From contig JARIGM010000014.1 of assembly GCA_029288865.1 (NCBI GenBank), forward strand, positions 1 to 46,563: a stretch of 46,563 nt of DNA. Direction: 5' to 3'. Under the pieces are notes generated by a model. The model searched no databases. It had not been told where the DNA came from and was given only the letters and a program-made list of their open reading frames with translations. A program made the position numbers and the translations under genes. Positions 3,893 to 44,613 of this stretch are shown piece by piece. This DNA is from Candidatus Kaiserbacteria bacterium. GTDB lineage: Bacteria > Patescibacteriota > Minisyncoccia > Phycocordibacterales > Phycocordibacteraceae. Positions within the stretch are counted from its first letter, which is position 1. Each line of letters begins with the position of its first letter.

Positions 3893-3915
3893 GGATACAG
3901 TATAGCAAATCCCTT

Positions 3916-4602
3916 CTAGGGGGTTGCAAATGAGAAACTTTGAACGATCGGTGTCAGTTCGCTGTAATGCTGCTCAAGGTCCGCATCAGAAATATCCTTC
4001 GGACTCGCCGGATCATCATGATAGCTTGAGCCAGCTTGTACTTGTTCAAGTGCGATGCACTTCCCGTCATGAACGGTGCGGTAACTGAGGCTCTTCGCAT
4101 ACTGCATCATGCCTGCCTCTTGTGATGCGAAGACCTTCCATGTTGTGCCATTCATGGTTACATCTGGCTGTGGCAACTCGCCATCACCTACCTTCGTACA
4201 CGCCGCAAGCTCTCTGCGATTCGTGCTCGCACCGATTCGTACTTCTGCATCAAAGTATCGCGGATACGTATTCTCGCTCTGCGTGCGATATCCGATGATT
4301 GAGAATATGGGTGTGCCGGTTGCATTCGGGAGTGCTCCTATGCGCCATGAATCGGAAAGATGGTAGTAGGCGCTAAACGAAGAAGTTGCCTCATCTTTCT
4401 GCGGATAGAAAATCGAGAACCCATACTCACCATTTGTATAAATAGCCATACCAGTGAGTGGAGGTGTGGTAGAAGCTTCAGTAACGTTCTGCGAGACTGG
4501 CGCCACTGGCTTTGCGACATGAGATGCAGCGCCCCACCAGATCACCGCCACAATAGCAATCATACCGATTCCGAGAACAGCATAAAATGCAGATGTTTTC
4601 AT
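3916..4602 (-). CDS. Membrane-anchored extracytoplasmic protein, probable PsbP/Mog1-like fold
   Basis: N-terminal TM helix; YTNGEYGFSIFYP near the N-terminus and IVQSFSF at the C-terminus; paralogous to 8051-8737. Confidence 0.6.
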   Translation of the reverse strand: MKTSAFYAVLGIGMIAIVAVIWWGAASHVAKPVAPVSQNVTEASTTPPLTGMAIYTNGEYGFSIFYPQKDEATSSFSAYYHLSDSWRIGALPNATGTPIFSIIGYRTQSENTYPRYFDAEVRIGASTNRRELAACTKVGDGELPQPDVTMNGTTWKVFASQEAGMMQYAKSLSYRTVHDGKCIALEQVQAGSSYHDDPASPKDISDADLEQHYSELTPIVQSFSFATP

Positions 4603-4617
4603 ATATTCAGTATATCG

Positions 4618-6303
4618 CTACATCACCTGTCGAAGATAGGCACGTGCTAGCTTCAGCTCGTCATATGAATATGCTTCGGCAAGACGATTGTATACGGGCG
4701 AAAGTTTCTCAAAGCCGAGTGTCTGAAATGCTTCAGCAATCGGTACCAGACGTGCTCGCAGTACCTCCGGCAAAAGTTGCTCGAGCTGTTGCGGCGTAAT
4801 CTTTCCGAGGGTTGCGAGCTTTTCCGCATGTTCGACAATCGTTCCGAAACCAAGACCTCTCATCTCCGCTATTTCTTGGATTGATTTTCCCTCCTCGAGA
4901 GCTGCAAGAGTAATTTCATACGTCGTCTGACGACCAGTAGACTTGACTTTAGGTTTTGCAATTATGGGAGCCGCTATGAGCGTGCCACCGCAAGCCTGAA
5001 TGAATCGTTCTTCCATGGTCGTGCGTTCGCCAAAGGATTCGAGCTCTTTGAAGAAATCTTCTGCATTTACCGAAGCCTCTTGGAAATCAAAGTCGCGCCG
5101 AGAGACTTCCGGATGCACAGCTGCTGCTTGTGCGCTCCATCCGAGCAGATAGAGACCCTCGAGCGTTCGTACGCGAGAAAGCGCCACATACCCTTGTCCA
5201 TATTCGAATGCACGAGAGAGATCCATCGCAGCCGCGTCGAGGCTTTGTCCTTGGCTCTTATGGATAGTTATCGCCCAGGCCAGCCGCAACGGAATCTGTG
5301 AAATACTTGCCCGTACCTTTCCTTCATCTTCAACGACCCATTCAACAGGTTGGATCGTGATACGTCGTTCGTCTAACGTCTCGAGAATCGGATACGATGT
5401 TCCGGATTCGAATCCAACGATACGCCCGACTGTTCCGTTTACATAGCCCAAGTTCGCATTATTCTTCGTGCACATCACGACTGCATCCTCCTTCAAAACA
5501 AGTTTTTCAGGCGATAGACACCCCCGTTTCAAGCCTTCAACGAGATTTGCTTTACCATTCGTCTCCATCTCGAAATTATGAGTCACGCCTGGAAGAGCCT
5601 TTAGCTGGGTGTCATTCAGGCGATCAACGTCGGCGTTATGCGTGTAGAGTCGAGGTATATCCTCGGGAATCTCTTCTGCCGTAATGAACCGCTCGCGGAG
5701 TGTCTCAGACTCATCTTCGGCAAAAGTACCGGAACGGATTGCACCAAGCAACGAGAGGAACGTGCGATCATCTTGACGATGCTGTTCGGTCAGATAACAC
5801 GTGATCGGATTCAGGTCGTGCCATGCTTGTGATTGGAATGCGAACGGCGTCGTACTTCCTGCGCGGGCGATCGGTGGCAATTGGAAGAAATCACCCACCA
5901 TAACTACCTGTAATCCGCCGAATGCCATATCATTGCCGCGCACTTGCCGACAGACAGCATCTACCGCGTCGAGCACGACCGCAGAAAGCATTGAGATCTC
6001 GTCAATAATTAATATGGACGTCTTTTGTATACGTTTCGCGACTGGCTCCTTGCTTGCGATCTGATCGATGTCATACGGAGTGAATCTATCCAAGATGCCG
6101 AGCCCGCTCCACGCATGCAATGTCATACCGTGCACGTGCGTCGCAGCAACGCCGGTCGATGCGGTGATGGCAGGCTCAATAGAATGCTCGCGCAGCCAGT
6201 CTATGTATGCCTTTATAGTATGTGTCTTACCACTGCCAGGAGATCCTGTCAGGAATACGTTTGCACCGGTTCGAAGTATCAATAGCGCCTCTTTTTGGGT
6301 CAT
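4618..6303 (-). CDS. PIF1/RecD-like SF1B DNA helicase with a C-terminal helix-turn-helix domain
   Basis: Walker A FLTGSPGSGKT; IIDEISM, VGDFFQLPP, LTEQHRQ, LAWAITIHKSQG and GQGYVALSRVR motifs. Confidence 0.92.
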   Translation of the reverse strand: MTQKEALLILRTGANVFLTGSPGSGKTHTIKAYIDWLREHSIEPAITASTGVAATHVHGMTLHAWSGLGILDRFTPYDIDQIASKEPVAKRIQKTSILIIDEISMLSAVVLDAVDAVCRQVRGNDMAFGGLQVVMVGDFFQLPPIARAGSTTPFAFQSQAWHDLNPITCYLTEQHRQDDRTFLSLLGAIRSGTFAEDESETLRERFITAEEIPEDIPRLYTHNADVDRLNDTQLKALPGVTHNFEMETNGKANLVEGLKRGCLSPEKLVLKEDAVVMCTKNNANLGYVNGTVGRIVGFESGTSYPILETLDERRITIQPVEWVVEDEGKVRASISQIPLRLAWAITIHKSQGQSLDAAAMDLSRAFEYGQGYVALSRVRTLEGLYLLGWSAQAAAVHPEVSRRDFDFQEASVNAEDFFKELESFGERTTMEERFIQACGGTLIAAPIIAKPKVKSTGRQTTYEITLAALEEGKSIQEIAEMRGLGFGTIVEHAEKLATLGKITPQQLEQLLPEVLRARLVPIAEAFQTLGFEKLSPVYNRLAEAYSYDELKLARAYLRQVM

Positions 6304-7838: not shown

Positions 7839-7888
7839 CAGATACACACGAAAAGCGGCCACTTGTGGCCGCTTTTCGTGTGTATCTG
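7839..7888. terminator. 24-bp perfect inverted repeat with a 2-nt loop; probable terminator
   Basis: CAGATACACACGAAAAGCGGCCAC-TT-GTGGCCGCTTTTCGTGTGTATCTG, about 10 nt downstream of the small ORF stop at 7898. Confidence 0.75.
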
Positions 7889-8741: not shown

Positions 8742-9986
8742 TCATTGTACCACACCCACGAGAGGAATGTGCAGTGTTCTATGGCCTACTTTATTGCTTT
8801 TTGATGGCTTCACCTGATCCTTAACCAACGCTTGGAAGCTTGATGCCAGGAAGAGCGTATTGCGGCCGTATTTGTGGTTGACGCGGTCTACCGTCTCGAT
8901 GATCCGCTCGCGTTCTCGAGCGGATTCAGCCATGCCGAAGAGGTCGTCCATCTGCGCAGCTTCAGGCACGAGCGAACGGATCGTGATGCCAGTCGCCCGA
9001 TACGGCACCTTCGGCACATATACCTCATCGAATCGCCGATCGATATGTGCGAGCAGCTCGCCCGGATCAGCGGTGGGCGTCGTGAGCTCGATGGACACAG
9101 CATGATAGGTGAATTCCTGCGTCTTCAGATAGAACGTGAGGCCGGCGGCGCGCATATGGTGCCGGCGCGCCTTTGCGCATACTGCTTCGACATTTTTCGA
9201 CAGTTGCGAAAAGATGAAGGATCGGCTTTCTGATGGAGGTGAGAAAGTGCGAGTGTGCATGAGCGAACCCACCCCGCTCCGCTTCTCACCGAACCTCTTG
9301 ATTGCATGACCTCGGAGTTCCAGCCATACATCCCGATATGCTTTCCCGAACCGATGCATCGCGAGCCACGGGTCATCTTTGGTGATGAAATCCCCCGCCG
9401 TCATGACGCCGAGCTTTTCAAGGTGCGTGCCAGAAGCGCCACCTAAATTCCACACATGATGAATGGGAATATTCGCAGTGAACTCTGGGATCTGTTCCGG
9501 CGGTACGCTCGTGAAGCCGGCGGGCTTGTTCGCTTTTGAGGCAGCTTTGGCAAGCGTCTTTGACGAGGCCAATCCCACTCCGAACGTCAGCCCGAGCGAG
9601 TTTTCAAGCTCGCTCTTGATAGACCGTACGACCTCTTCATAGCCGCTCCAGCTCTCTGCTAAATCGGTGAGGTCAGCGAAGCATTCGTCGATACTGTATT
9701 CATCCACTGCCGGTGTGTATTGCCGCACGATTGAATACATGCGCTGCGCGAAGATCGCATACGCCATATAGTTCGAGGGCACGATGATCGCCTGCGGGCA
9801 TCGAATCTTTACTTCGCGCATGCTCATGCCGCGTGACAACCCGAGCCGTTTCGCCTCGATCGATACGGATGTCGGCGCACCGCGCTCAGCACCCGTCACG
9901 ATTGGCTTGCCGCGCAGCCGGTAGTTCAAGACTTGTTCCACTGACGCGAAAAAGGAGTCCCCGTCGAAGTGAACGATCGCACGCAT
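8742..9986 (-). CDS. dinB: Y-family translesion DNA polymerase (DinB/UmuC)
   Basis: IVHFDGDSFFASVEQ, YSIDECFADLT, GLASSKTLAKAASK.KP.G, and a C-terminal VDRVNHKYG tail. Confidence 0.92.
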   Translation of the reverse strand: MRAIVHFDGDSFFASVEQVLNYRLRGKPIVTGAERGAPTSVSIEAKRLGLSRGMSMREVKIRCPQAIIVPSNYMAYAIFAQRMYSIVRQYTPAVDEYSIDECFADLTDLAESWSGYEEVVRSIKSELENSLGLTFGVGLASSKTLAKAASKANKPAGFTSVPPEQIPEFTANIPIHHVWNLGGASGTHLEKLGVMTAGDFITKDDPWLAMHRFGKAYRDVWLELRGHAIKRFGEKRSGVGSLMHTRTFSPPSESRSFIFSQLSKNVEAVCAKARRHHMRAAGLTFYLKTQEFTYHAVSIELTTPTADPGELLAHIDRRFDEVYVPKVPYRATGITIRSLVPEAAQMDDLFGMAESARERERIIETVDRVNHKYGRNTLFLASSFQALVKDQVKPSKSNKVGHRTLHIPLVGVVQ

Positions 9987-9987
9987 G

Positions 9988-10563
9988 TCAATATTTCCGG
10001 AAGGTGGCTGTCACCACCCCCACGATCTCACCCTCGATCGGATGGATTTCGGGGTATTTCTCATTCGCGGCTTCCAAGAAGAGATGTGCGCCTTTCTTGC
10101 GCAAGAACTTGAGCGTGTAGCCATCTTCCGTGAGTGCCACCACGATCTGCCCTGGCCGCGCGTCCTTCGTGCGCTCGAAGATCACCATGTCCCCTTCCTG
10201 GATGCCTGCATCGATCATCGAATCTCCTTCGACCTGCAAGAGATAGCTGCGGTTCGGATGCGGAATCAAGAACTCGCCAACACTGATGAGATCCGTGAGC
10301 TCATCTTCAGCAGGCGCAGCGAAGCCTGCACGAATATGTCCGACCATCGGAATCTCGTATAACTTGCTCGACGGTGTTAGACGGCCGGCCGAGTCCTTCT
10401 GTATTACGCCTTCCTTCACGAGCCGATTCACCACATAGAACGCCGAACTTCGCGATGCGAAATCACATATTTCCATCACTTCAGTAATGGTAGGCATTCG
10501 TCGATGCGCGCGATAAAAATCGAGAATCTTGCCCTTGTAGTTCTTCGAGTATTTCTTGGCCAT
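9988..10563 (-). CDS. lexA: LexA-family repressor (winged HTH plus S24 autopeptidase)
   Basis: RMPTITEVM...ASRSSAF HTH; IPMVGHIRAG with Ala-Gly cleavage site; VEGDSMIDAGI catalytic Ser; TLK catalytic Lys; stop 1 nt before the dinB ATG. Confidence 0.88.
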   Translation of the reverse strand: MAKKYSKNYKGKILDFYRAHRRMPTITEVMEICDFASRSSAFYVVNRLVKEGVIQKDSAGRLTPSSKLYEIPMVGHIRAGFAAPAEDELTDLISVGEFLIPHPNRSYLLQVEGDSMIDAGIQEGDMVIFERTKDARPGQIVVALTEDGYTLKFLRKKGAHLFLEAANEKYPEIHPIEGEIVGVVTATFRKY

Positions 10564-10568
10564 TCCTC

Positions 10569-10598
10569 TAGCATATCGAACAATTGTTCGATATGCTA
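10569..10598. promoter_or_regulatory. LexA operator (SOS box, CGAAC-N4-GTTCG) inside a 30-bp perfect palindrome overlapping the lexA -10 box
   Basis: TAGCATATCGAACAATTGTTCGATATGCTA; the core CGAACAATTGTTCG fits the Firmicutes/Actinobacteria-type GAAC-N4-GTTC box; TATGCT is 6 nt before the lexA ATG. Confidence 0.8.
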
Positions 10599-13905: not shown

Positions 13906-13935
13906 CAAAAAGCTCCCGCATGCGGGAGCTTTTTG
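13906..13935. terminator. Bidirectional intrinsic terminator (30-bp perfect palindrome)
   Basis: CAAAAAGCTCCCGCA|TGCGGGAGCTTTTTG between convergent genes, with A and T tracts on either side. Confidence 0.85.
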
Positions 13936-13949
13936 TTGCAAAGTCCGAA

Positions 13950-15395
13950 TTAACGAACCGTGAGGTAAACCGTGTTGCTGGTCTGCCCTGCTGCATTCGT
14001 AACGTAGACAGGATACGAACCTGGAGTTACGTATGAGAGCCATTGCGCGCAGTATCCGCTTGAAGGCGTTACATCGCAGCCCGAGACCTGACGTGGGATC
14101 GTGTAGTAGATGGTGCTGCCGTTGTACGACGACACGTTCATCGAGCCACCGTTCGAGAAGTGGACCGTATTCCCGTATGAAGAGAAGCCTGATCCGCTGA
14201 TCGTGACGCTCGAACCGATAGTTGCTGGGTTCGGAGAGATGTACGAGATGTTCGGCGTGCCATAGTTGTAGCCATTGTTATTACCGTACACCGTGATGGT
14301 GAGGGTCTGGTACGCATATGCGCCATTCGAGTTCGTTGCCGTAAGGCGGATCGTGTAGGTGCCAGCGTTGTTGTATACGTGGCTGAATGATACGTTCTGG
14401 CTGCCGCTCAAGTTGATCGACTGTGAAGTCGTGTTCGAGCTGTCTCCCCAATCAGTCACGATGGTCGTGTACTGGCTGTTGTAGTTGTAGTACGAAGAGT
14501 TCGATACGCTTACATTCCATGTATTCGTGGTACCAGTCTGTACCGATGAAGCGCCATTTATCGACGAAAGCGAAACAGTGCCGTTATTGCTGTTATAGCT
14601 ATTATTCGATGACGACATCGGGAAGCTCAAAGTGTTGCTTGATGCACCATAGCTGTTCACGACATAGATGTCGTAGTTACCCGAATAGTAGCCATTCGGA
14701 ATGGTGAACGTGAGAGTCGTGCCATCTGCAGAGTATGCAGTGTAGGTTGAACCATCGAAGTGAACGGTATCGTTCGAAGTGAAGCCGTATCCGCGGAGCG
14801 TGATGGTCGCAGATCCATAGTTATAGGTAGCGTTTGCGGAGTTAAGCGTGATAGCAGCGTTATTTCCGTAGTTGTAGTTATAACCATTCGAGTTTCCACA
14901 GCTGCGATAGCTCGTGTCGTACGGATAGTAACGGCTCGAGTCAACACATCCGGTATTCCAGATAGTCGGAGGAACAACAACCGGAGCGATAACTGGAGGA
15001 ACAGTGGCATAGCCGCAGCTCGCCTGATTGATCGCAGCGCGAGTGATAGGGCCGACGGTTCCGGTAGCAGTGATGCCATGAGACGCCTGGAATGCGACGA
15101 CTGCGTTGCGAGTATTCCAGTCATAGCTGCCTGAAACGCCCGTCATAAGACCAGCACGGTTCAGATACTGCTGCAGCATGCTCACCTGTCCGTTCGTGAA
15201 CAAGTCGAGAGAACCGATCGCGAGGTAATTCGTGAGCGTCACGCAGCCTGCTGTCGAGTAGCTCGGCGTGACGTACGAACTGCCGTACGAATTAATGGGA
15301 TAAACATAGGTCTGTGCTTGGGCAGCTGGGACCATGGTTAGGAAAAGCCCCGCTACAACCAAGAAAACGCTTGAAATACGTGCTATTTTTGCCAT
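13950..15395 (-). CDS. Secreted surface protein with peptidoglycan-binding-like, IPT/TIG and PKD-like domains
   Basis: Signal peptide MAKIARISS...AQA; VSMLQQYL...TRNAVVAFQASHGITATGTVGPITR (PG-binding-1 pattern); TLRGYGF and TISGSGF (IPT); DWGD...SHVYNNAGTYTIRLT (PKD). Confidence 0.75.
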   Translation of the reverse strand: MAKIARISSVFLVVAGLFLTMVPAAQAQTYVYPINSYGSSYVTPSYSTAGCVTLTNYLAIGSLDLFTNGQVSMLQQYLNRAGLMTGVSGSYDWNTRNAVVAFQASHGITATGTVGPITRAAINQASCGYATVPPVIAPVVVPPTIWNTGCVDSSRYYPYDTSYRSCGNSNGYNYNYGNNAAITLNSANATYNYGSATITLRGYGFTSNDTVHFDGSTYTAYSADGTTLTFTIPNGYYSGNYDIYVVNSYGASSNTLSFPMSSSNNSYNSNNGTVSLSSINGASSVQTGTTNTWNVSVSNSSYYNYNSQYTTIVTDWGDSSNTTSQSINLSGSQNVSFSHVYNNAGTYTIRLTATNSNGAYAYQTLTITVYGNNNGYNYGTPNISYISPNPATIGSSVTISGSGFSSYGNTVHFSNGGSMNVSSYNGSTIYYTIPRQVSGCDVTPSSGYCAQWLSYVTPGSYPVYVTNAAGQTSNTVYLTVR

Positions 15396-15431
15396 ATGTT
15401 CTAGTTTTACCTCACTTTTGCACTTTTTGCA

Positions 15432-15469
15432 AGTCCAAGAGCCTCCCGGGTCCGGGAGGCTCTTGGACT
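15432..15469. terminator. 18-bp inverted repeat, probable terminator
   Basis: AGTCCAAGAGCCTCCCGG-GT-CCGGGAGGCTCTTGGACT, about 15 nt downstream of the stop at 15484. Confidence 0.75.
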
Positions 15470-15483
15470 CATCAAATCGGCTT

Positions 15484-16140
15484 TTATTGCTGATTCGGCT
15501 GAGTTGCCTGAGTATTTTGGCCTGATCCTTGCTGGCCTCCGTGCTCCATAGAGCCATGCATTTCCATGCCAGGGCGCATGCGCATCTGGGATGAGCTGCC
15601 CATGTGCATGTCTCCATGCATCTCGCCCGTATGCATCGGACTCGAGCTACCCATCTTAGTGTTACCCATCTCCTTATGATCACCTGGCTTTGGCATCATG
15701 ATGCCGTCAAGGATCATCTTGGCAGCAACGGTCGTATTGGTGAGCGTACCGATGATGAGCACGTTATCACCGACCTTGATGCTTGAAACGGTCGTGGTAC
15801 CGACTTCCCGCTTGATAACCTTGGAAGCGGAGGCATCGACTGAGAACGTAGTAGATGCAGTCGAATCCTTGCTGCGTCCGATAACACTGAGTGACGTGCC
15901 ATCAATGGAGACAACCTTTCCGATTACGGCTGGCATACCCATTGGCGAAGAGCTACCTATGTGCATGTCTCCCGTACCCATTCCCATTCCGCCCTCGTGG
16001 TCCATGGTTGTGGATGCGTGATGTTCCATACGCATCGTAGTCGTACCCTCCTGCTGAGACGGAGCCGCCATATGACCACCGAACATCGAACCGAGTAATG
16101 CAAGAGCACCGGTAAACGCACTGGCAAGTAAGGACATCAT
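15484..16140 (-). CDS. Secreted Met/His/Gly-rich protein with a central DUF5666-like beta domain
   Basis: Hydrophobic N-terminus; central GKVVSIDGTSL...VDAS...IKVGDNVLIIG...AKMI; flanking MHxGSSSxM-like repeats. Confidence 0.65.
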   Translation of the reverse strand: MMSLLASAFTGALALLGSMFGGHMAAPSQQEGTTTMRMEHHASTTMDHEGGMGMGTGDMHIGSSSPMGMPAVIGKVVSIDGTSLSVIGRSKDSTASTTFSVDASASKVIKREVGTTTVSSIKVGDNVLIIGTLTNTTVAAKMILDGIMMPKPGDHKEMGNTKMGSSSPMHTGEMHGDMHMGSSSQMRMRPGMEMHGSMEHGGQQGSGQNTQATQPNQQ

Positions 16141-18931: not shown

Positions 18932-18973
18932 AAGCAAAACGACCCATTCTTCTAGGAATGGGTCGTTTTGCTT
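18932..18973. terminator. 18-bp stem-loop, probable terminator
   Basis: AAGCAAAACGACCCATTC-TTCTAG-GAATGGGTCGTTTTGCTT downstream of the stop at 18992. Confidence 0.75.
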
Positions 18974-22986: not shown

Positions 22987-23014
22987 AAGCCTCCAGCAAT
23001 TTTGCTGGAGGCTT
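22987..23014. terminator. 13-bp inverted repeat, probable terminator
   Basis: AAGCCTCCAGCAA-TT-TTGCTGGAGGCTT downstream of the stop at 23033. Confidence 0.7.
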
Positions 23015-38965: not shown

Positions 38966-41014
38966 ATGACTGCTACCCCAACCATAGACGTCGAGATGCT
39001 GAGCAACATGCTAAACGCATTGCCCTATGCCGTCTATACCTTCGATCGAGACCGACGCATTATCTTTTCCAATAAGACGGCACGACGGCAGCAAGTGGCG
39101 AGCGCGCCCGGTGAAGCGATCGGAGCAGCTCAGATCGATCACTTCAAGGATAACGAATACTACGACGAATCCGGTGATCGCCTCCCCCCAGACAAACTAC
39201 TCGTGCTCGAGCGGGCATTCCAAGGCGAAACGACACATGATTTTTTGATTGAACATCGTAACGTCAAGACTCGCACTCACAAATGGCTCGAGATCACCTG
39301 CATTCCAGTCATGGATCAGTCAGGGGAATTTTCATACGGCATCCTTATATCCCGTGACGTATCGCTCCGCAAGAAACGTGAGGACAAACTTCGATTCCTT
39401 ATGGAATCCACGAAGATCATTTCACTTACGATTGAATTTCAAGACCGTCTCCAGCGAAAGGCAGAGCTGGCCGTTCCTTCCCTTGCGGATTGGTGCGGGA
39501 TCGAGATCGTGAATAGTATGGGCAAGCTTGAACGGCAAGCAATCGTGCATCGAGATCCGAGGAAGATCGAGCAGATTCGCGAATACGAACTTCGGTATCC
39601 CCCAAAACCTGGAGAGGAAAGCCCCTCAGAACGAGTGGTCCGTACCGGCAAAGGAGAATTTACGCCTGTCGTAACAGACGAGATGATTGACGCGGTTCCC
39701 GGATTAAATCCTGACCAACGCGAAGCCATCCGTGCCCTCCAGCTTTCATCTCTTATGACGCTTCCCATTGGCCGGCCTGGCCGGGTGCTTGGAGCGTTCA
39801 CGCTTGCATACGCTGAATCCGGCCGAGTCTATACCCAGGAAGATTTCAACTTCTTTAGCGAATTCGCGCAACATTTAAGCGTGCTTCTTGATAACGCGCG
39901 GCTTTATAACGAAATCCGCCTCCGAGATGAATCGAAAGACATCTTCCTCGCTTCTCTCTCACATGAATTACGCAATCCACTTGCGCCGATCCGCAGTTCG
40001 CTTGAACTCCTCAAAATTCAGAACCAAGATCCGAATCTCGATTCTGAGATTGCCGTCATTGACCATCAATTCGAGCACATGTCCCATCTGCTTAATGACC
40101 TCCTCGATACGACGCGATTCATCCGCGGCAAGATCGTGGTGCAACTCTCGCCGATCGACCTCATGGATGTGCTCGACCAGATGGTGGGTGCACTCCGACC
40201 AGTTGCGGATCAGAAGAACATATTCCTCTCGATCGAGACCGATAACTCACGATATCCCGTAAACGGCGATCGTATCCGTCTCGAACAAGCGTTCACGAAT
40301 CTCCTCAATAATGCGATCAAGTTCACCCCGTCCGGCGGCGTCATCAAGATAACTGCAGAAACAGTTGGCCAAGAAATTGTGATCAAGGTATGCGACAGCG
40401 GTGTCGGAATTACGCCGGAGGAAATGGCGCGCATCTTCGAACCGTACTATCAGAGCGAACGCGTGCAAAGTGCGAATCCTGGCCTTGGAATCGGTTTGCG
40501 CCTGGTGTATGAGATCATCCATCTTCACCGGGGCTCCCTCACTGCAGAGAGCGAAGGCAAAGATAAAGGCAGCACTTTTACCATCACGCTTCCTCTTGCA
40601 ACCGTTGAGGAGGAGACCTCAAGCGAAGCACCGACTACCCTTCCTGCCGCAGATGAAAGCAAACGCGTGATCATCGTGGATGATAACCAAGCAGCAGCAG
40701 ACGGCCTTGCTCGACTTCTGAAAGCTCTTGGATGGAACGCAAAGGCTCTATACGGCGGACGTGACCTACTTGCTCTTCTTGCTCGCGAAACCATAGATAT
40801 TGCATTTGTGGACATCGGCATGCCGGAAATGGACGGCTACGACGTGATTGCAGAGATACGATCCCAAGGCTACACGCTCCCGGTCGTCGCCCTCACGGGC
40901 TACGGCCTTACCGAAGACAAACAAGAAGCCCTTGCTGCCGGCTTCACCGCACACCTCACCAAGCCTGTCGGAGCAGCCGAACTCAAAGAAACCCTCGCAG
41001 CATTGCTTTCGTAA
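38966..41014 (+). CDS. Cytoplasmic hybrid sensor kinase (PAS/PAC-GAF-HisKA-HATPase-REC)
   Basis: H-box LSHELRNPLAPI; NLLNNAIKFT, DSGVGI and GLGIGL; receiver IVDDN...FVDIGMPEMDGY...HLTKPV. Confidence 0.92.
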   Translation: MTATPTIDVEMLSNMLNALPYAVYTFDRDRRIIFSNKTARRQQVASAPGEAIGAAQIDHFKDNEYYDESGDRLPPDKLLVLERAFQGETTHDFLIEHRNVKTRTHKWLEITCIPVMDQSGEFSYGILISRDVSLRKKREDKLRFLMESTKIISLTIEFQDRLQRKAELAVPSLADWCGIEIVNSMGKLERQAIVHRDPRKIEQIREYELRYPPKPGEESPSERVVRTGKGEFTPVVTDEMIDAVPGLNPDQREAIRALQLSSLMTLPIGRPGRVLGAFTLAYAESGRVYTQEDFNFFSEFAQHLSVLLDNARLYNEIRLRDESKDIFLASLSHELRNPLAPIRSSLELLKIQNQDPNLDSEIAVIDHQFEHMSHLLNDLLDTTRFIRGKIVVQLSPIDLMDVLDQMVGALRPVADQKNIFLSIETDNSRYPVNGDRIRLEQAFTNLLNNAIKFTPSGGVIKITAETVGQEIVIKVCDSGVGITPEEMARIFEPYYQSERVQSANPGLGIGLRLVYEIIHLHRGSLTAESEGKDKGSTFTITLPLATVEEETSSEAPTTLPAADESKRVIIVDDNQAAADGLARLLKALGWNAKALYGGRDLLALLARETIDIAFVDIGMPEMDGYDVIAEIRSQGYTLPVVALTGYGLTEDKQEALAAGFTAHLTKPVGAAELKETLAALLS

Positions 41015-41079
41015 AAAATCCAGAAATAATTCATTTTTGCTTGAGAAAGATTTGATATGAATCTCGATATTCTTTTTAG

Positions 41080-41463
41080 ATGGGAAAAGACTTCGATGAA
41101 TGGAATGAGCTAAAGAAAAAAGTGAATGGTCTGAAGGCTCATTTATATACTGTTCGGGAGATATGGTGGTGTCAGCTGGGTATAAATATTGGAACTGAGC
41201 AAGATGGCAGAGGTGAGAGATATTTGAGACCAGTTTTAGTATTAGTGAGTTTTGGTGCAGAAGCGTGTCTTATAGCCCCTCTCACTACCTCGCAGCGCCA
41301 ACACCCTCTTCGCATACCGATTGGGATGATTGAGGGAAAAGATGCACGGGTAAATTTGTCTCAGATTCGGGTTGTAGATACCAGACGCTTCATTGAGAAA
41401 ATCGGGTTTCTAGATAGAGAGATTTTCTCATTAGTTAGAAAGACCGCTAGAGAGATTCTCTAG
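41080..41463 (+). CDS. PemK/MazF-family endoribonuclease toxin with no adjacent antitoxin gene
   Basis: REIWWCQLG.NIGTEQDG...RPVLVL, LIAPLTT and NLSQIRVVD..R; visibly AT-rich. Confidence 0.85.
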   Translation: MGKDFDEWNELKKKVNGLKAHLYTVREIWWCQLGINIGTEQDGRGERYLRPVLVLVSFGAEACLIAPLTTSQRQHPLRIPIGMIEGKDARVNLSQIRVVDTRRFIEKIGFLDREIFSLVRKTAREIL

Positions 41464-41547
41464 CGGTCTTTCTTTACGTTCTCCCTCTTGCGAGGGTAAG
41501 GCCGAAGCCAACTGTATTTCTATTATAATCCTCTCGTCAAAAAATGC

Positions 41548-41583
41548 AAAACAACAAACCGCTGAAAGGCGGTTTGTTGTTTT
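41548..41583. terminator. Bidirectional intrinsic terminator with a GAAA loop
   Basis: AAAACAACAAACCGC-TGAAAG-GCGGTTTGTTGTTTT between the convergent toxin and rpmG genes. Confidence 0.85.
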
Positions 41584-41586
41584 ATC

Positions 41587-41739
41587 TTATTTCTTGATTT
41601 CTTTGAAAATCTCACGCTTGCGGGTGATCGGATCATATTTCTTTAATTCCAGCTTGCGCTCTACCTTCTTCTTATTCTTGCGAGTGAATATGGTATGGCC
41701 AGACGCTGAACGCATTTTCTGGAGACGGTCTTGTGACAT
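41587..41739 (-). CDS. rpmG: 50S ribosomal protein L33 (cysteine-free form)
   Basis: Manual translation MSQDRLQKMRSASGHTIFTRKNKKKVERKLELKKYDPITRKREIFKEIKK; the T.KNK...KLELKKYDP..RK...FKE signature is present. Confidence 0.93.
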   Translation of the reverse strand: MSQDRLQKMRSASGHTIFTRKNKKKVERKLELKKYDPITRKREIFKEIKK

Positions 41740-41747
41740 ATGTTCCT

Positions 41748-41776
41748 AGGGTATCAGATTACGGCAAAGCTTGCAA
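41748..41776 (-). promoter_or_regulatory. Sigma70-type promoter of rpmG
   Basis: TTGCAA-17 nt-TACCCT on the minus strand, 8 nt before the ATG. Confidence 0.55.
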
Positions 41777-41792: not shown

Positions 41793-41945
41793 CCGTATAA
41801 CCGTACGAGTGAGAAAAGGGCTCTCGGAGCTGGAGTGACATTTGCGAGCCGAAAGGCGGCTGCGAGCAAATTCACCCAGCGAGAGCGAGACACTGCTTCA
41901 GCAGAAGCAGACGGCGTACCTTTTCTCACTCGTACGGTTATACGG
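41793..41945. repeat. 153-bp element with perfect 27-bp terminal inverted repeats enclosing nested hairpins (MITE/REP-like or structured RNA)
   Basis: CCGTATAACCGTACGAGTGAGAAAAGG (41793-41819) is the exact reverse complement of 41919-41945; the interior folds into one long and one short hairpin. Confidence 0.85.
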
Positions 41946-44613
41946 TTACTGGACTCTTCTTTGCACGAGCCGCCCCCTTCTTCACCTCAAACACTGGCTC
42001 GCCTGCCTTATTGATCGACACGGTCACAGTGCCACCCTCCATAACTCCCTGACCCACCATCAAGCTCGCGATCGGTGTCAGGATCTGGTCTTGAATCGTT
42101 CGCTTGAGTGGACGAGCGCCGTACTGCGGATTATATCCCTTCTCAGCAAGCCACGAACGAACCTCTGGTGAGATGATGAGCGTAATGCGCTTGTTTGCGA
42201 GACGTGTGACAACCTCTTGAACCTGTTTCTCAACGATCTGCGCGAGCGCATCCTTGGAAAGCACGTCGAAGTTGACGATGTCATCCAGGCGATTTAAGAA
42301 TTCTGGACGGAAATGATCCTTGAGCGACGCGTTCATCTTCTCCTTGATCTCTTCGTATTGCGCAGCATCTTCAGCACTACTGGTGCCGAAGCCCATACGT
42401 GCCATGCGGTCGAGATACTCCGCGCCGATGTTCGAGGTAAGGATGATGATGGTGTTCTTGAAGTTAACCTTGCGACCTTTGCCGTCCGTGAGGTGACCAC
42501 TATCGAGCACCTGGAGCAAGATGTTGAACACTTCCGGATGCGCTTTCTCCACTTCGTCGAAAAGCACAACGGCATACGGGCGATGGCGAATACGCTCCGT
42601 AAGAGAGCCGGCTTCTTCATAGCCCACATAACCTGGAGGTGCACCGATCAACTTCGCGACCGAATGCTTTTCCATAAACTCGGACATATCCACTCGAACG
42701 AGTGCGTCCTTGTCATTAAACATAAACTCTGCAAGCTGGCGAGAGAGTTCTGTCTTACCAACACCAGTTGGGCCCAAGAAGAGGAACGAACCGATCGGAC
42801 GATTCGGATCCGCGATACCAACACGCGAGCGCTTTACTGCATCAGATACGATCTTCACCGCATTGTCCTGACCCATGACTGCAGACTTGAGGTCTTCTTC
42901 CATGCGTGCGAGCTTTGCAGCTTCTTCTTCAAGCATCTTCGAGACAGGAATACCTGTCCAGCGAGAGACGACACCTGCAATCTCGTGTTCGGTAACTTCT
43001 TCGTGAAGCACGCGGCGTGAACGCTGCAACTGCTTGAGACGCTTCATCTTGGCTTCGAGCTCTTTCTGAAGGGTTGGAATCTTGCCATAGCGGATTTCGG
43101 CTGCAGTGCCAAGGTCGCCTGTCGCTTCGGCGTTGTCTGCCTGCACACGGAGCTTCTCGAGCTCAGACTTTATTGCACGGATTCCGGTCAGCACTTCTTT
43201 CTCATTCTTCCACTTGAGTTCGAGTTCTGACGTCTTTTCACGGAGGTCAGCGATTTCGCTATCGATCACTTTGATTCGCTCTTTAATTTCCTTTCCGTGT
43301 TCGCCTTCCTCGTCCTTCTGGAGAGCTTGGCGTTCGATCTCGAGGCGGCGAATCTTTCGATCAGTCTCTTCGAGCAATACTGGCTTGTTCTCAAGCGCAA
43401 TGCGAAGACCCGATGCTGCCTCATCGATAAGATCGATCGCCTTGTCTGGAAGGTAGCGATCCGTGATGTAGCGCGACGAGAGATCAACCGCGTTCACGAT
43501 TGCCCCGTCAGTGATGCGGACGCCATGGTACAGCTCGTACTTGTCGCGAAGACCGCGAAGAATAGCGACGGCATCTTCAATAGACGGTTCATTCACGTAG
43601 ACCGGCTGGAAGCGACGCGTCAGTGCGGCATCCTTCTCGATGTGCTGCTGATACTCCTTAAGAGTTGTCGCACCAATGATGCGGATCTCTCCACGAGCAA
43701 GCGCCGGCTTGAGCATATTGGTCGCATCGAGCGAGCCTTCTGCGGCACCAGCACCCACGAGCGTGTGGAGCTCATCGATGAAGAGGATGATCTTTCCTTC
43801 TGCCTTCTCCACTTCCTTCATTACATTTTTCATGCGCTCTTCGAACTCACCACGATACTTAGTTCCTGCAATGAGGAGACCGAGGTCGAGCGAAAGAAGT
43901 TCTTTGCCTTTCAGTGATTCTGGTACATCTCCTTGCGCGAGACGTTGCGCCATTCCCTCAGCGATGGCTGTCTTTCCGACACCAGCTTCACCGATCAAGA
44001 CCGGGTTGTTCTTGGTGCGGCGCGAAAGAATCTGGATCACGCGGTGAATTTCCTGATCGCGCCCGATGACGGGGTCGAGCTTGTTCTCTGCAGCGAGCTT
44101 GGTGAGATTGCGTGTGAACTTTGCAAGCGCGCGGAATCGCTTCGGTTCAGCCACTTGCCCATCCTTCGAAGTCTTGAGTTCCTTAAGCACAGCAAGTGCA
44201 GTTTCCTCATCGATACGGAAGCGGCCAATCACGTCAGCTGCTGGACCTGGATGCTCGAGCACGGCAATGAAGAGATGTTCGGTTCCGATGAATGAATCAT
44301 TCATGCGGGCAGCGATCTTACCGACATTTTCAAGAATCTCAGCGAGATCCGGTGTCAGGAAAATCTGATAGGAAGGAGAAAGCACTGATGCGCTTTCTGG
44401 TGTCTCGAGTAGTTCGAGTAGTGTATCGGAAAGCAGCATGGCATCCACGTCCATGCGATCCAAGATCGAGAATACGAGACTCTCTTCCTGATGAATCAGC
44501 GCCGTGAGAAGGTGCAGCGGACTCACGTGGTTCTGACCACGTTCGATAGCCAGCTCATGCGCTTTCTTTACGGCTTCTTTTGCTTTAGTTGTCCAATTTT
44601 TGAAAGGTGGCAT
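41938..44613 (-). CDS. clpB: ATP-dependent disaggregase ClpB
   Basis: Clp N domain; NBD1 [10 protein letters not shown]...LFIDELH; long coiled-coil M domain ending [10 protein letters not shown]; NBD2 [12 protein letters not shown]...LFDEVEKAH. Confidence 0.96.

Follow-up and report, generated by a model that had tools for sequence, protein, structure and literature searches.

Results

Gene context of the element

The window (the whole stretch of DNA analysed here, 46,563 nucleotides) is ordinary chromosome, with topA, relA/spoT, serS, dnaX, parB and miaA among its genes and, on Pfam scans, no encoded transposase or integrase. Homologues of its ClpB place the host in the Paceibacteria/Patescibacteria, the nearest of them being 91% identical. 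The element described here is a nested hairpin of 153 bases in a minus-strand gene context, where it separates the clpB stop codon from the rpmG promoter. The neighbouring features are:

44613..41938, minus strand: clpB, 891 amino acids, C-terminus ...KKSPVTV*
41748..41776, minus strand: rpmG promoter, TTGCAA (41776-41771), 17-nt spacer, TACCCT (41753-41748), with TGA ahead of the -10; conserved in 8 genomes
41739..41587, minus strand: rpmG, ribosomal protein L33, 50 amino acids, Pfam Ribosomal_L33
41548..41583, bidirectional: terminator hairpin downstream of rpmG, with a perfect stem of 15 bp and A/T tracts

That rpmG has a promoter of its own downstream of the element had been proposed from the letters of this DNA alone (hereafter the sequence-only reading), and comparison bore this out. 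The arrangement TTGCnn-17-TAnnnT with an upstream TGn is kept in 8/8 genomes (the window, L001, L003, L011 to L014 and L017). The -10 ends 8 nt before the ATG in the window and 7-8 nt before it across the eight, from which it follows that rpmG is probably transcribed from this promoter and that its mRNA is probably leaderless in these Paceibacteria. As the promoter (41776-41748) starts 16 nt past the element, the latter fills exactly the gap from the clpB stop to the rpmG -35.

Convergent with rpmG lies a MazF/PemK-type toxin gene (41080-41463, plus strand; PF02452, E 4e-15), and the 70-aa ORF upstream of it (40848-41060, plus strand), which is without a Pfam match, is a possible antitoxin. 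Elsewhere in the window there is a umuDC-like pair (8742-10563, minus strand), a Y-family polymerase (IMS/impB family) adjoining an S24 peptidase (LexA/UmuD-like), and near it a PIF1-like helicase with an HTH_40 domain (4618-6303, minus strand).

Structure of the element

An inverted-repeat search returned two arms, 41793-41819 and 41919-41945, complementary at 27/27 nt and spaced 99 nt apart, just as the sequence-only reading had described them. When the window was dinucleotide-shuffled, 0/100 shuffles gave two arm matches, even with up to three mismatches allowed. Within the 46.5-kb window this is the sole long inverted repeat with a sizeable interior, the other long ones being hairpins with loops of 2-6 nt. 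Listed in the direction of clpB transcription, its parts are:

41919..41945, minus strand: 5' arm in clpB transcript sense, CCGUAUAACCGUACGAGUGAGAAAAGG, with the A-tract GAGAAAAGG at its end
41911..41918, minus strand: unpaired linker of 8 nt, UACGCCGU on the sense strand, at the three-way junction of the fold
41893..41910, minus strand: hairpin A of the fold, perfect 7-bp stem CUGCUUC/GAAGCAG, 4-nt loop, -9.5 kcal/mol
41887..41892, minus strand: linker of 6 nt in the fold, UGUCUC on the sense strand
41820..41886, minus strand: hairpin B of the fold, 67-nt imperfect palindrome, ~28 bp, -33.6 kcal/mol
41793..41819, minus strand: 3' arm in transcript sense, CCUUUUCUCACUCGUACGGUUAUACGG, with a U-run; ends 16 nt before the rpmG -35 hexamer

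In minimum free energy (MFE) predictions either strand folds into a 27-bp stem that closes a three-way junction with hairpins A and B, and every interior pairing listed in the sequence-only reading is present in these folds. The MFE is -93 to -99 kcal/mol, with z = -12.7 for the minus strand and -11.5 for the plus strand; a direct comparison of the strands gave -93.3 (plus) and -92.0 (minus). The pairing consists of 61 Watson-Crick pairs and 0-1 G-U. Such composition, with equal stability on both strands, points to a palindrome made at the DNA level.

Hairpin B carries three bulges or mismatches and has a G+C-rich base, GCUCUCG/CGAGAGC, and the 32-nt branch bearing hairpin A is on its upstream side in clpB sense. 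In that sense only, hairpin B is followed directly 3' by CCUUUUCUC, the inner end of an arm. The earlier remark that no U-tract terminator is evident therefore needs amending, since a short U-run is present.

The stem starts 5 nt ahead of the clpB stop codon in the sense orientation, and the arm 41919-41945 takes in GTA, the final codon, along with the TAA stop (41940-41938) and 2 nt of the Thr codon before it, in agreement with the earlier observation that one arm includes the end of the gene. The last 8 nt of the 3' arm (UUAUACGG) are the reverse complement of this native clpB end. On the minus strand the same end of clpB (41899-41945, with flank to 41952) also contains a tandem 8-nt direct repeat, G TAACCGTA TAACCGTA CGAG; unit one belongs to the coding sequence (V-T-V), and unit two runs across the stop codon and the arm.

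Gain of the element relative to relatives

The distance from the clpB stop to the rpmG ATG is as follows:

L001 (ClpB 91% identical): 48 nt
L003: 45 nt
L012: 47 nt
L013: 24 nt
Window: 198 nt

No hairpin is present in this gap in L001, L003, L012 or L013, so that the sequence-only reading's suggestion to look for an empty site in relatives was rewarded. Since the gaps of 24-48 nt in these relatives, the closest included, are without a hairpin, we regard the element as a lineage-specific gain; measured against the clpB-rpmG spacers of the sampled relatives, it is a ~150-nt insertion.

The relatives also indicate which of the terminal bases belonged to clpB before the gain. ClpB of the nearest relatives ends in SPIQV*, SPLSV*, SPVQV* and STVTV*, with the same end position and pattern as SPVTV* of the window, and ACC GTA TAA can accordingly be taken as native. 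Eight native nucleotides (CCGTATAA) lie outermost in one arm, and the other arm finishes with their reverse complement, TTATACGG. Because the outer 8 bp are thus native clpB codons, the matching 8 nt on the rpmG side were copied from clpB.

The absence of a target-site duplication, noted earlier, stood when set against the native gene end: none is compatible with the native clpB stop, the only direct repeats that the ends allow being TA and TATA. A repeat of TA or TATA would imply an empty site lacking the stop codon, and hence a ClpB tail that was lengthened and then restored to its exact ancestral length. The direct repeat CAAAGA (6 nt, on both flanks) was considered as a duplication and rejected, its right-hand copy being native spacer that is also found in L001. 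No local source sequence was detected for the interior.

Search for further copies, homologues and known RNAs

No further copy of the arm (up to three mismatches) or of a 14-mer from it (up to two) was found in the window, and no insertion sequence with the same ends, as judged from the lack of further arm matches and of Pfam transposases there. Three DNA collections were scanned with an exact 18-mer from the arm, AACCGTACGAGTGAGAAA, an exact word that diverged copies would escape; it matched twice in 185,579 GTDB species genomes, four times in JGI metagenomes and not at all in viral contigs. As 6/6 of these matches are isolated and without a partner arm, they were treated as chance. A blastn search of plasmids and phages returned one 33-nt chance match only. 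The element is therefore apparently single copy for the 46.5 kb of host genome and the other organisms searched, and by our estimate 0 further copies in 46 kb is compatible with up to ~65 copies per Mb.

The sequence-only reading had seen no ORF, and this does not hold in the strict sense, frames +2 and -2 being open through the element; the peptides from both frames had no match among 5.8 billion or 1.84 billion proteins (called ORFs). The Rfam search that it had recommended brought no known family to light, since none of the Rfam 15 covariance models matched any part of 41793-41945, whether the cut-off was the gathering threshold or E<=10, and ARAGORN found no tRNA or tmRNA in the element. 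With no Rfam match, no homologue, no G-U pairs and no strand bias, nothing indicates that an RNA has been under selection here, and the reading of the element as a conserved structured RNA is not supported.

Three further classes of element were considered and rejected. The core motifs of hammerhead or other small ribozymes are absent by eye, again with no Rfam match. An invertible promoter switch is countered by the lack of a recombinase nearby, by the 99-bp spacer and by the absence of a promoter inside. Integron attC sites have the consensus core sites RYYYAAC and GTTRRRY, from which GTATAAC and GTTATAC of the element are each one base off; however, its 27-bp stem is without a bulge or unpaired spacer, and clpB stands in conserved synteny rather than in a cassette.

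Gene-end hairpins and palindrome turnover

A census of perfect stems of at least 12 bp found 8 perfect hairpins in the window, with stems of 13-24 bp, loops of 2-6 nt and unique sequences. Seven of the eight are at gene 3' ends (7839-7888, 10569-10598, 13906-13935, 18932-18973, 22987-23014, 41437-41473 and 41548-41583), and most of the eight share a design of A-tract, G+C-rich stem and T-tract. The palindrome may continue past the tracts, by 12 bp at 7839-7888, by 4 bp at 18932-18973 and by 7 bp at 5870-5907 of L001. Two of the hairpins (41437-41473 and 41548-41583) overlap or abut stop codons, the first being a perfect 17-bp hairpin made of the last nine codons and the stop of the MazF-like gene. 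The clpB element is laid out in the same way, with GAGAAAAGG, then hairpins, then CCUUUUCUC, and its pairing extends outward by another 18 bases into clpB.

A perfect 18-bp palindrome, AGTCCAAGAGCCTCCCGG GT CCGGGAGGCTCTTGGACT, is also found at 15432-15469 within a predicted ORF (13950..15683, minus strand), upstream of the peptidoglycan-binding domain of that ORF; the predicted start of this ORF may be wrong, or else the hairpin may be intragenic.

The clpB-rpmG spacer carries palindromes in other relatives too. In L011 (4204-4277) it holds two adjacent, unrelated perfect hairpins with stems of 18 and 16 bp, together with CGTATATACG, and its close relative L014 is without them, having 93 unalignable nt at the same place. 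The gap from the clpB stop to the rpmG -35 holds, in L017, an element of 116 nt (3906-4021) made up of 21-nt arms and an interior of 74 nt. Its arms are 95% complementary, departing from a perfect match at a single G-U pair, and GCGGTT flanks the element on either side. The close relative L018 lacks this element and has a 36-nt spacer. Homology between the elements of the window and L017 was rejected, as their local alignment was not above shuffles (28-56 of 500 scored as well). Gains of palindromic sequence in this spacer have therefore been recurrent and independent.

At another locus L003 (GCA_031291965.1) has a MITE-type insertion (783-891) with perfect arms of 28 nt (31 nt with one mismatch) and an interior of 53 nt with partial arm copies. 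Its flanks, 774-782 and 894-902, are a 9-bp direct repeat, AATGCAATG, and L001 and L002 have one copy of this site in the same infB/aminotransferase spacer, with no insertion. So clean a duplication suggests that such a signature would show at the element of the window if it were present.

Discussion

A candidate terminator and insulator built on the end of clpB

The reading we favour, tentatively and at a confidence slightly short of even, takes the element for a DNA palindrome, lineage-specific and apparently present once, that would serve as a compound transcription terminator/insulator and 3'-end protective structure for clpB. We infer the terminator role from its design, which is like that of the ordinary terminators of this genome (A-tract, G+C-rich hairpin, T-tract). 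Hairpin B would form first, and CCUUUUCUC directly after it would be the likely termination point of clpB transcripts; closure of the 27-bp stem would then seal and protect the clpB 3' end. The branch with hairpin A, lying on the upstream side, would leave termination in the sense direction undisturbed. By these steps heat-induced transcription of clpB could be kept off the rpmG promoter 16 nt downstream.

Several observations weigh against termination as the whole answer. The element went uncalled in a scan against the terminator consensus; hairpin B greatly exceeds canonical terminator stems in length, and the U-run amounts to no more than UUUU inside CCUUUUCUC. In four relatives the spacer has no hairpin at all, so that a terminator here is dispensable. 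Above all, the 99-nt structured interior is at odds with the usual loop of 2-6 nt, and terminator function alone does not explain it.

The perfect outer stem round an imperfect inner palindrome calls for an account of its own. Template-switch (quasi-palindrome) mutations create or perfect hairpins, and outward growth or perfecting by intrastrand template switching during replication may have acted here, which would account for the inverted copy of 8 nt of native clpB coding sequence as well as for perfect arms round an imperfect, older core. With ~4 defects in 31 bp of hairpin B, we estimate that a flawless 27-bp arm pair would be only ~3% likely, assuming a neutral palindrome of one age in which hairpin B was once perfect. 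Template switching does not account for the source of the 99-nt interior. As this has no local source, import from elsewhere fits better than purely local growth, and a mobile origin of the core is possible within the terminator/insulator reading.

Alternative explanations

The main rival, possible but rather unlikely, is that the whole element is an orphan or low-copy non-autonomous element (MITE or REPIN-like) inserted just past the clpB stop, any effect on termination or RNase III cleavage being a by-product. It looks like a MITE in being 153 bp long, in being bounded by 27-bp perfect terminal inverted repeats and in lacking coding capacity, and it is present here and absent from the orthologous sites of L001, L003, L012 and L013. 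Its interior is without a local source, and the insertion in L003, with inverted repeats of 28-31 bp and the 9-bp AATGCAATG, is a true MITE-type event in a relative. To this extent the sequence-only reading, which had offered a MITE or REP-like repeat, was right as to insertion at an orthologous locus, size and inverted repeats; the copies found and the target site went against it. No second copy came from the window, species genomes, metagenomes, viral contigs, plasmids, phages or protein libraries, the empty site implied by the only drawable repeats (TA or TATA) would lack the native clpB stop, the supposed terminal repeat has native clpB codons as its outer 8 bp, and the window encodes no transposase.

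RNase III requires roughly 20-22 bp of duplex, and the 27 uninterrupted Watson-Crick pairs of the outer stem exceed this, so that the perfect duplex would be a substrate if the stem forms in vivo. An RNase III module has accordingly to be weighed, in which cleavage of the stem would uncouple clpB from the downstream RNA and release a functional, Y-shaped RNA of ~100 nt. With no terminator ahead of the element, clpB transcripts must be expected from its position to enter it, and in Neisseria the inverted repeats of equally large Correia elements are RNase III substrates (PMC2649163). We nevertheless hold this module to be improbable. There is no Rfam match, no homologue, no G-U pairing or strand bias, no promoter is predicted within the element, and a ribosome terminating at the clpB stop, whose footprint would extend ~12-15 nt past it, may hold much of the outer stem open. 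Processing by RNase III as such would be compatible with either a terminator or a MITE origin.

An assembly artefact, that is, a fold-back or chimeric join, is very improbable. Amplification chimeras can yield perfect long inverted repeats, but the contig end is 4.6 kb away and both flanks of the element (clpB on one side, the rpmG promoter and rpmG on the other) are colinear with relatives. Its interior is novel and not an inverted copy of neighbouring sequence, the inner palindrome is imperfect, unlike a fold-back, and comparable elements occur in the independent assemblies of L003 and L017.

The sequence-only reading's third proposal, a temperature-sensitive structure controlling clpB termination or stability, can be set aside as scarcely credible, and so can such control of rpmG translation. 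The sole support is the heat-shock gene next door. In silico the structure does not change between 25 and 65 C and its outer stem is still paired at 95 C, and a position 3' of clpB and upstream of an rpmG promoter whose -10 ends 8 nt before the ATG leaves no ribosome-binding site to mask.

Likeness to known systems

Setting aside the alternatives, the terminator/insulator palindrome invites comparison with bidirectional intrinsic terminators of A-tract, hairpin and T-tract, among which there are non-canonical forms with long stems. Like these, the element starts at a gene stop, and GAGAAAAGG and CCUUUUCUC flank G+C-rich hairpins; it is also like the gene-end hairpins of the window (7839, 13906, 18932 and 41548) and of relatives in design. 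It differs from bidirectional terminators in its 'loop' of 99 nt with two hairpins, in a stem that continues 18 bp past the tracts and in its short U-run.

REPINs are inverted REP doublets mobilised by RAYT; they form nested hairpins, cause no target-site duplication and are found just past stop codons, in all of which the clpB element resembles them. In contrast to REPINs, however, its arms are not REP-like palindromes, the window has no RAYT (Y1 transposase) and no copies were found.

Correia elements (CREE/NEMIS) of Neisseria have long forms of 153-157 bp, occur in ~100-250 copies per genome and use TA target sites (PMC2649163). The clpB element is of near-equal size, and like them it has inverted-repeat ends, is adjacent to a gene with which it would be co-transcribed and forms a potential RNase III hairpin (PMC2649163); unlike them it is known in one copy, shows no compatible duplication and no sequence similarity, and has a palindromic interior. 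SPRITE of S. pneumoniae and the ERIC-type MITEs are likewise small, palindromic and intergenic, and their transcripts are long hairpins resembling Rho-independent terminators (PMC10969869, PMC3049150). These are multi-copy families, whereas the clpB element was not seen repeated. Gene-end palindromic terminators and MITE-like palindromic inserts both being known, the element is best filed as an elaborate example of the two.

Significance

If the terminator/insulator reading is true, its importance is modest: a very small CPR genome would be seen to build gene-end hairpins directly on coding sequence, and palindromes could grow into MITE look-alikes, which would counsel caution in the automated calling of MITEs and non-coding RNAs. 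Further copies, if found, would instead make this a new MITE family in an almost unstudied phylum, and the element would matter more if it gave rise to a processed, stable RNA.

The more general point is that, in several lineages, unrelated palindromes have rapidly come and gone within one and the same spacer of 30-50 nt. As a speculative extension that we think unlikely, Paceibacteria may continually generate long, perfect palindromes of unique sequence, and mini-elements bounded by inverted repeats, in short intergenic spacers. The one after clpB would be an unusually elaborate case, its 27-bp stem and Y-shaped core serving, through RNase III processing, to insulate a stress gene from a ribosomal-protein gene with a leaderless mRNA. 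The process behind such continual generation would be a distinctive one, either mutational (palindrome growth by template switching) or mobile (many single-copy MITE families). Examples of it would be the elements of the window, L017 and L003 and the hairpins of L011, each of which is absent from the nearest relative.
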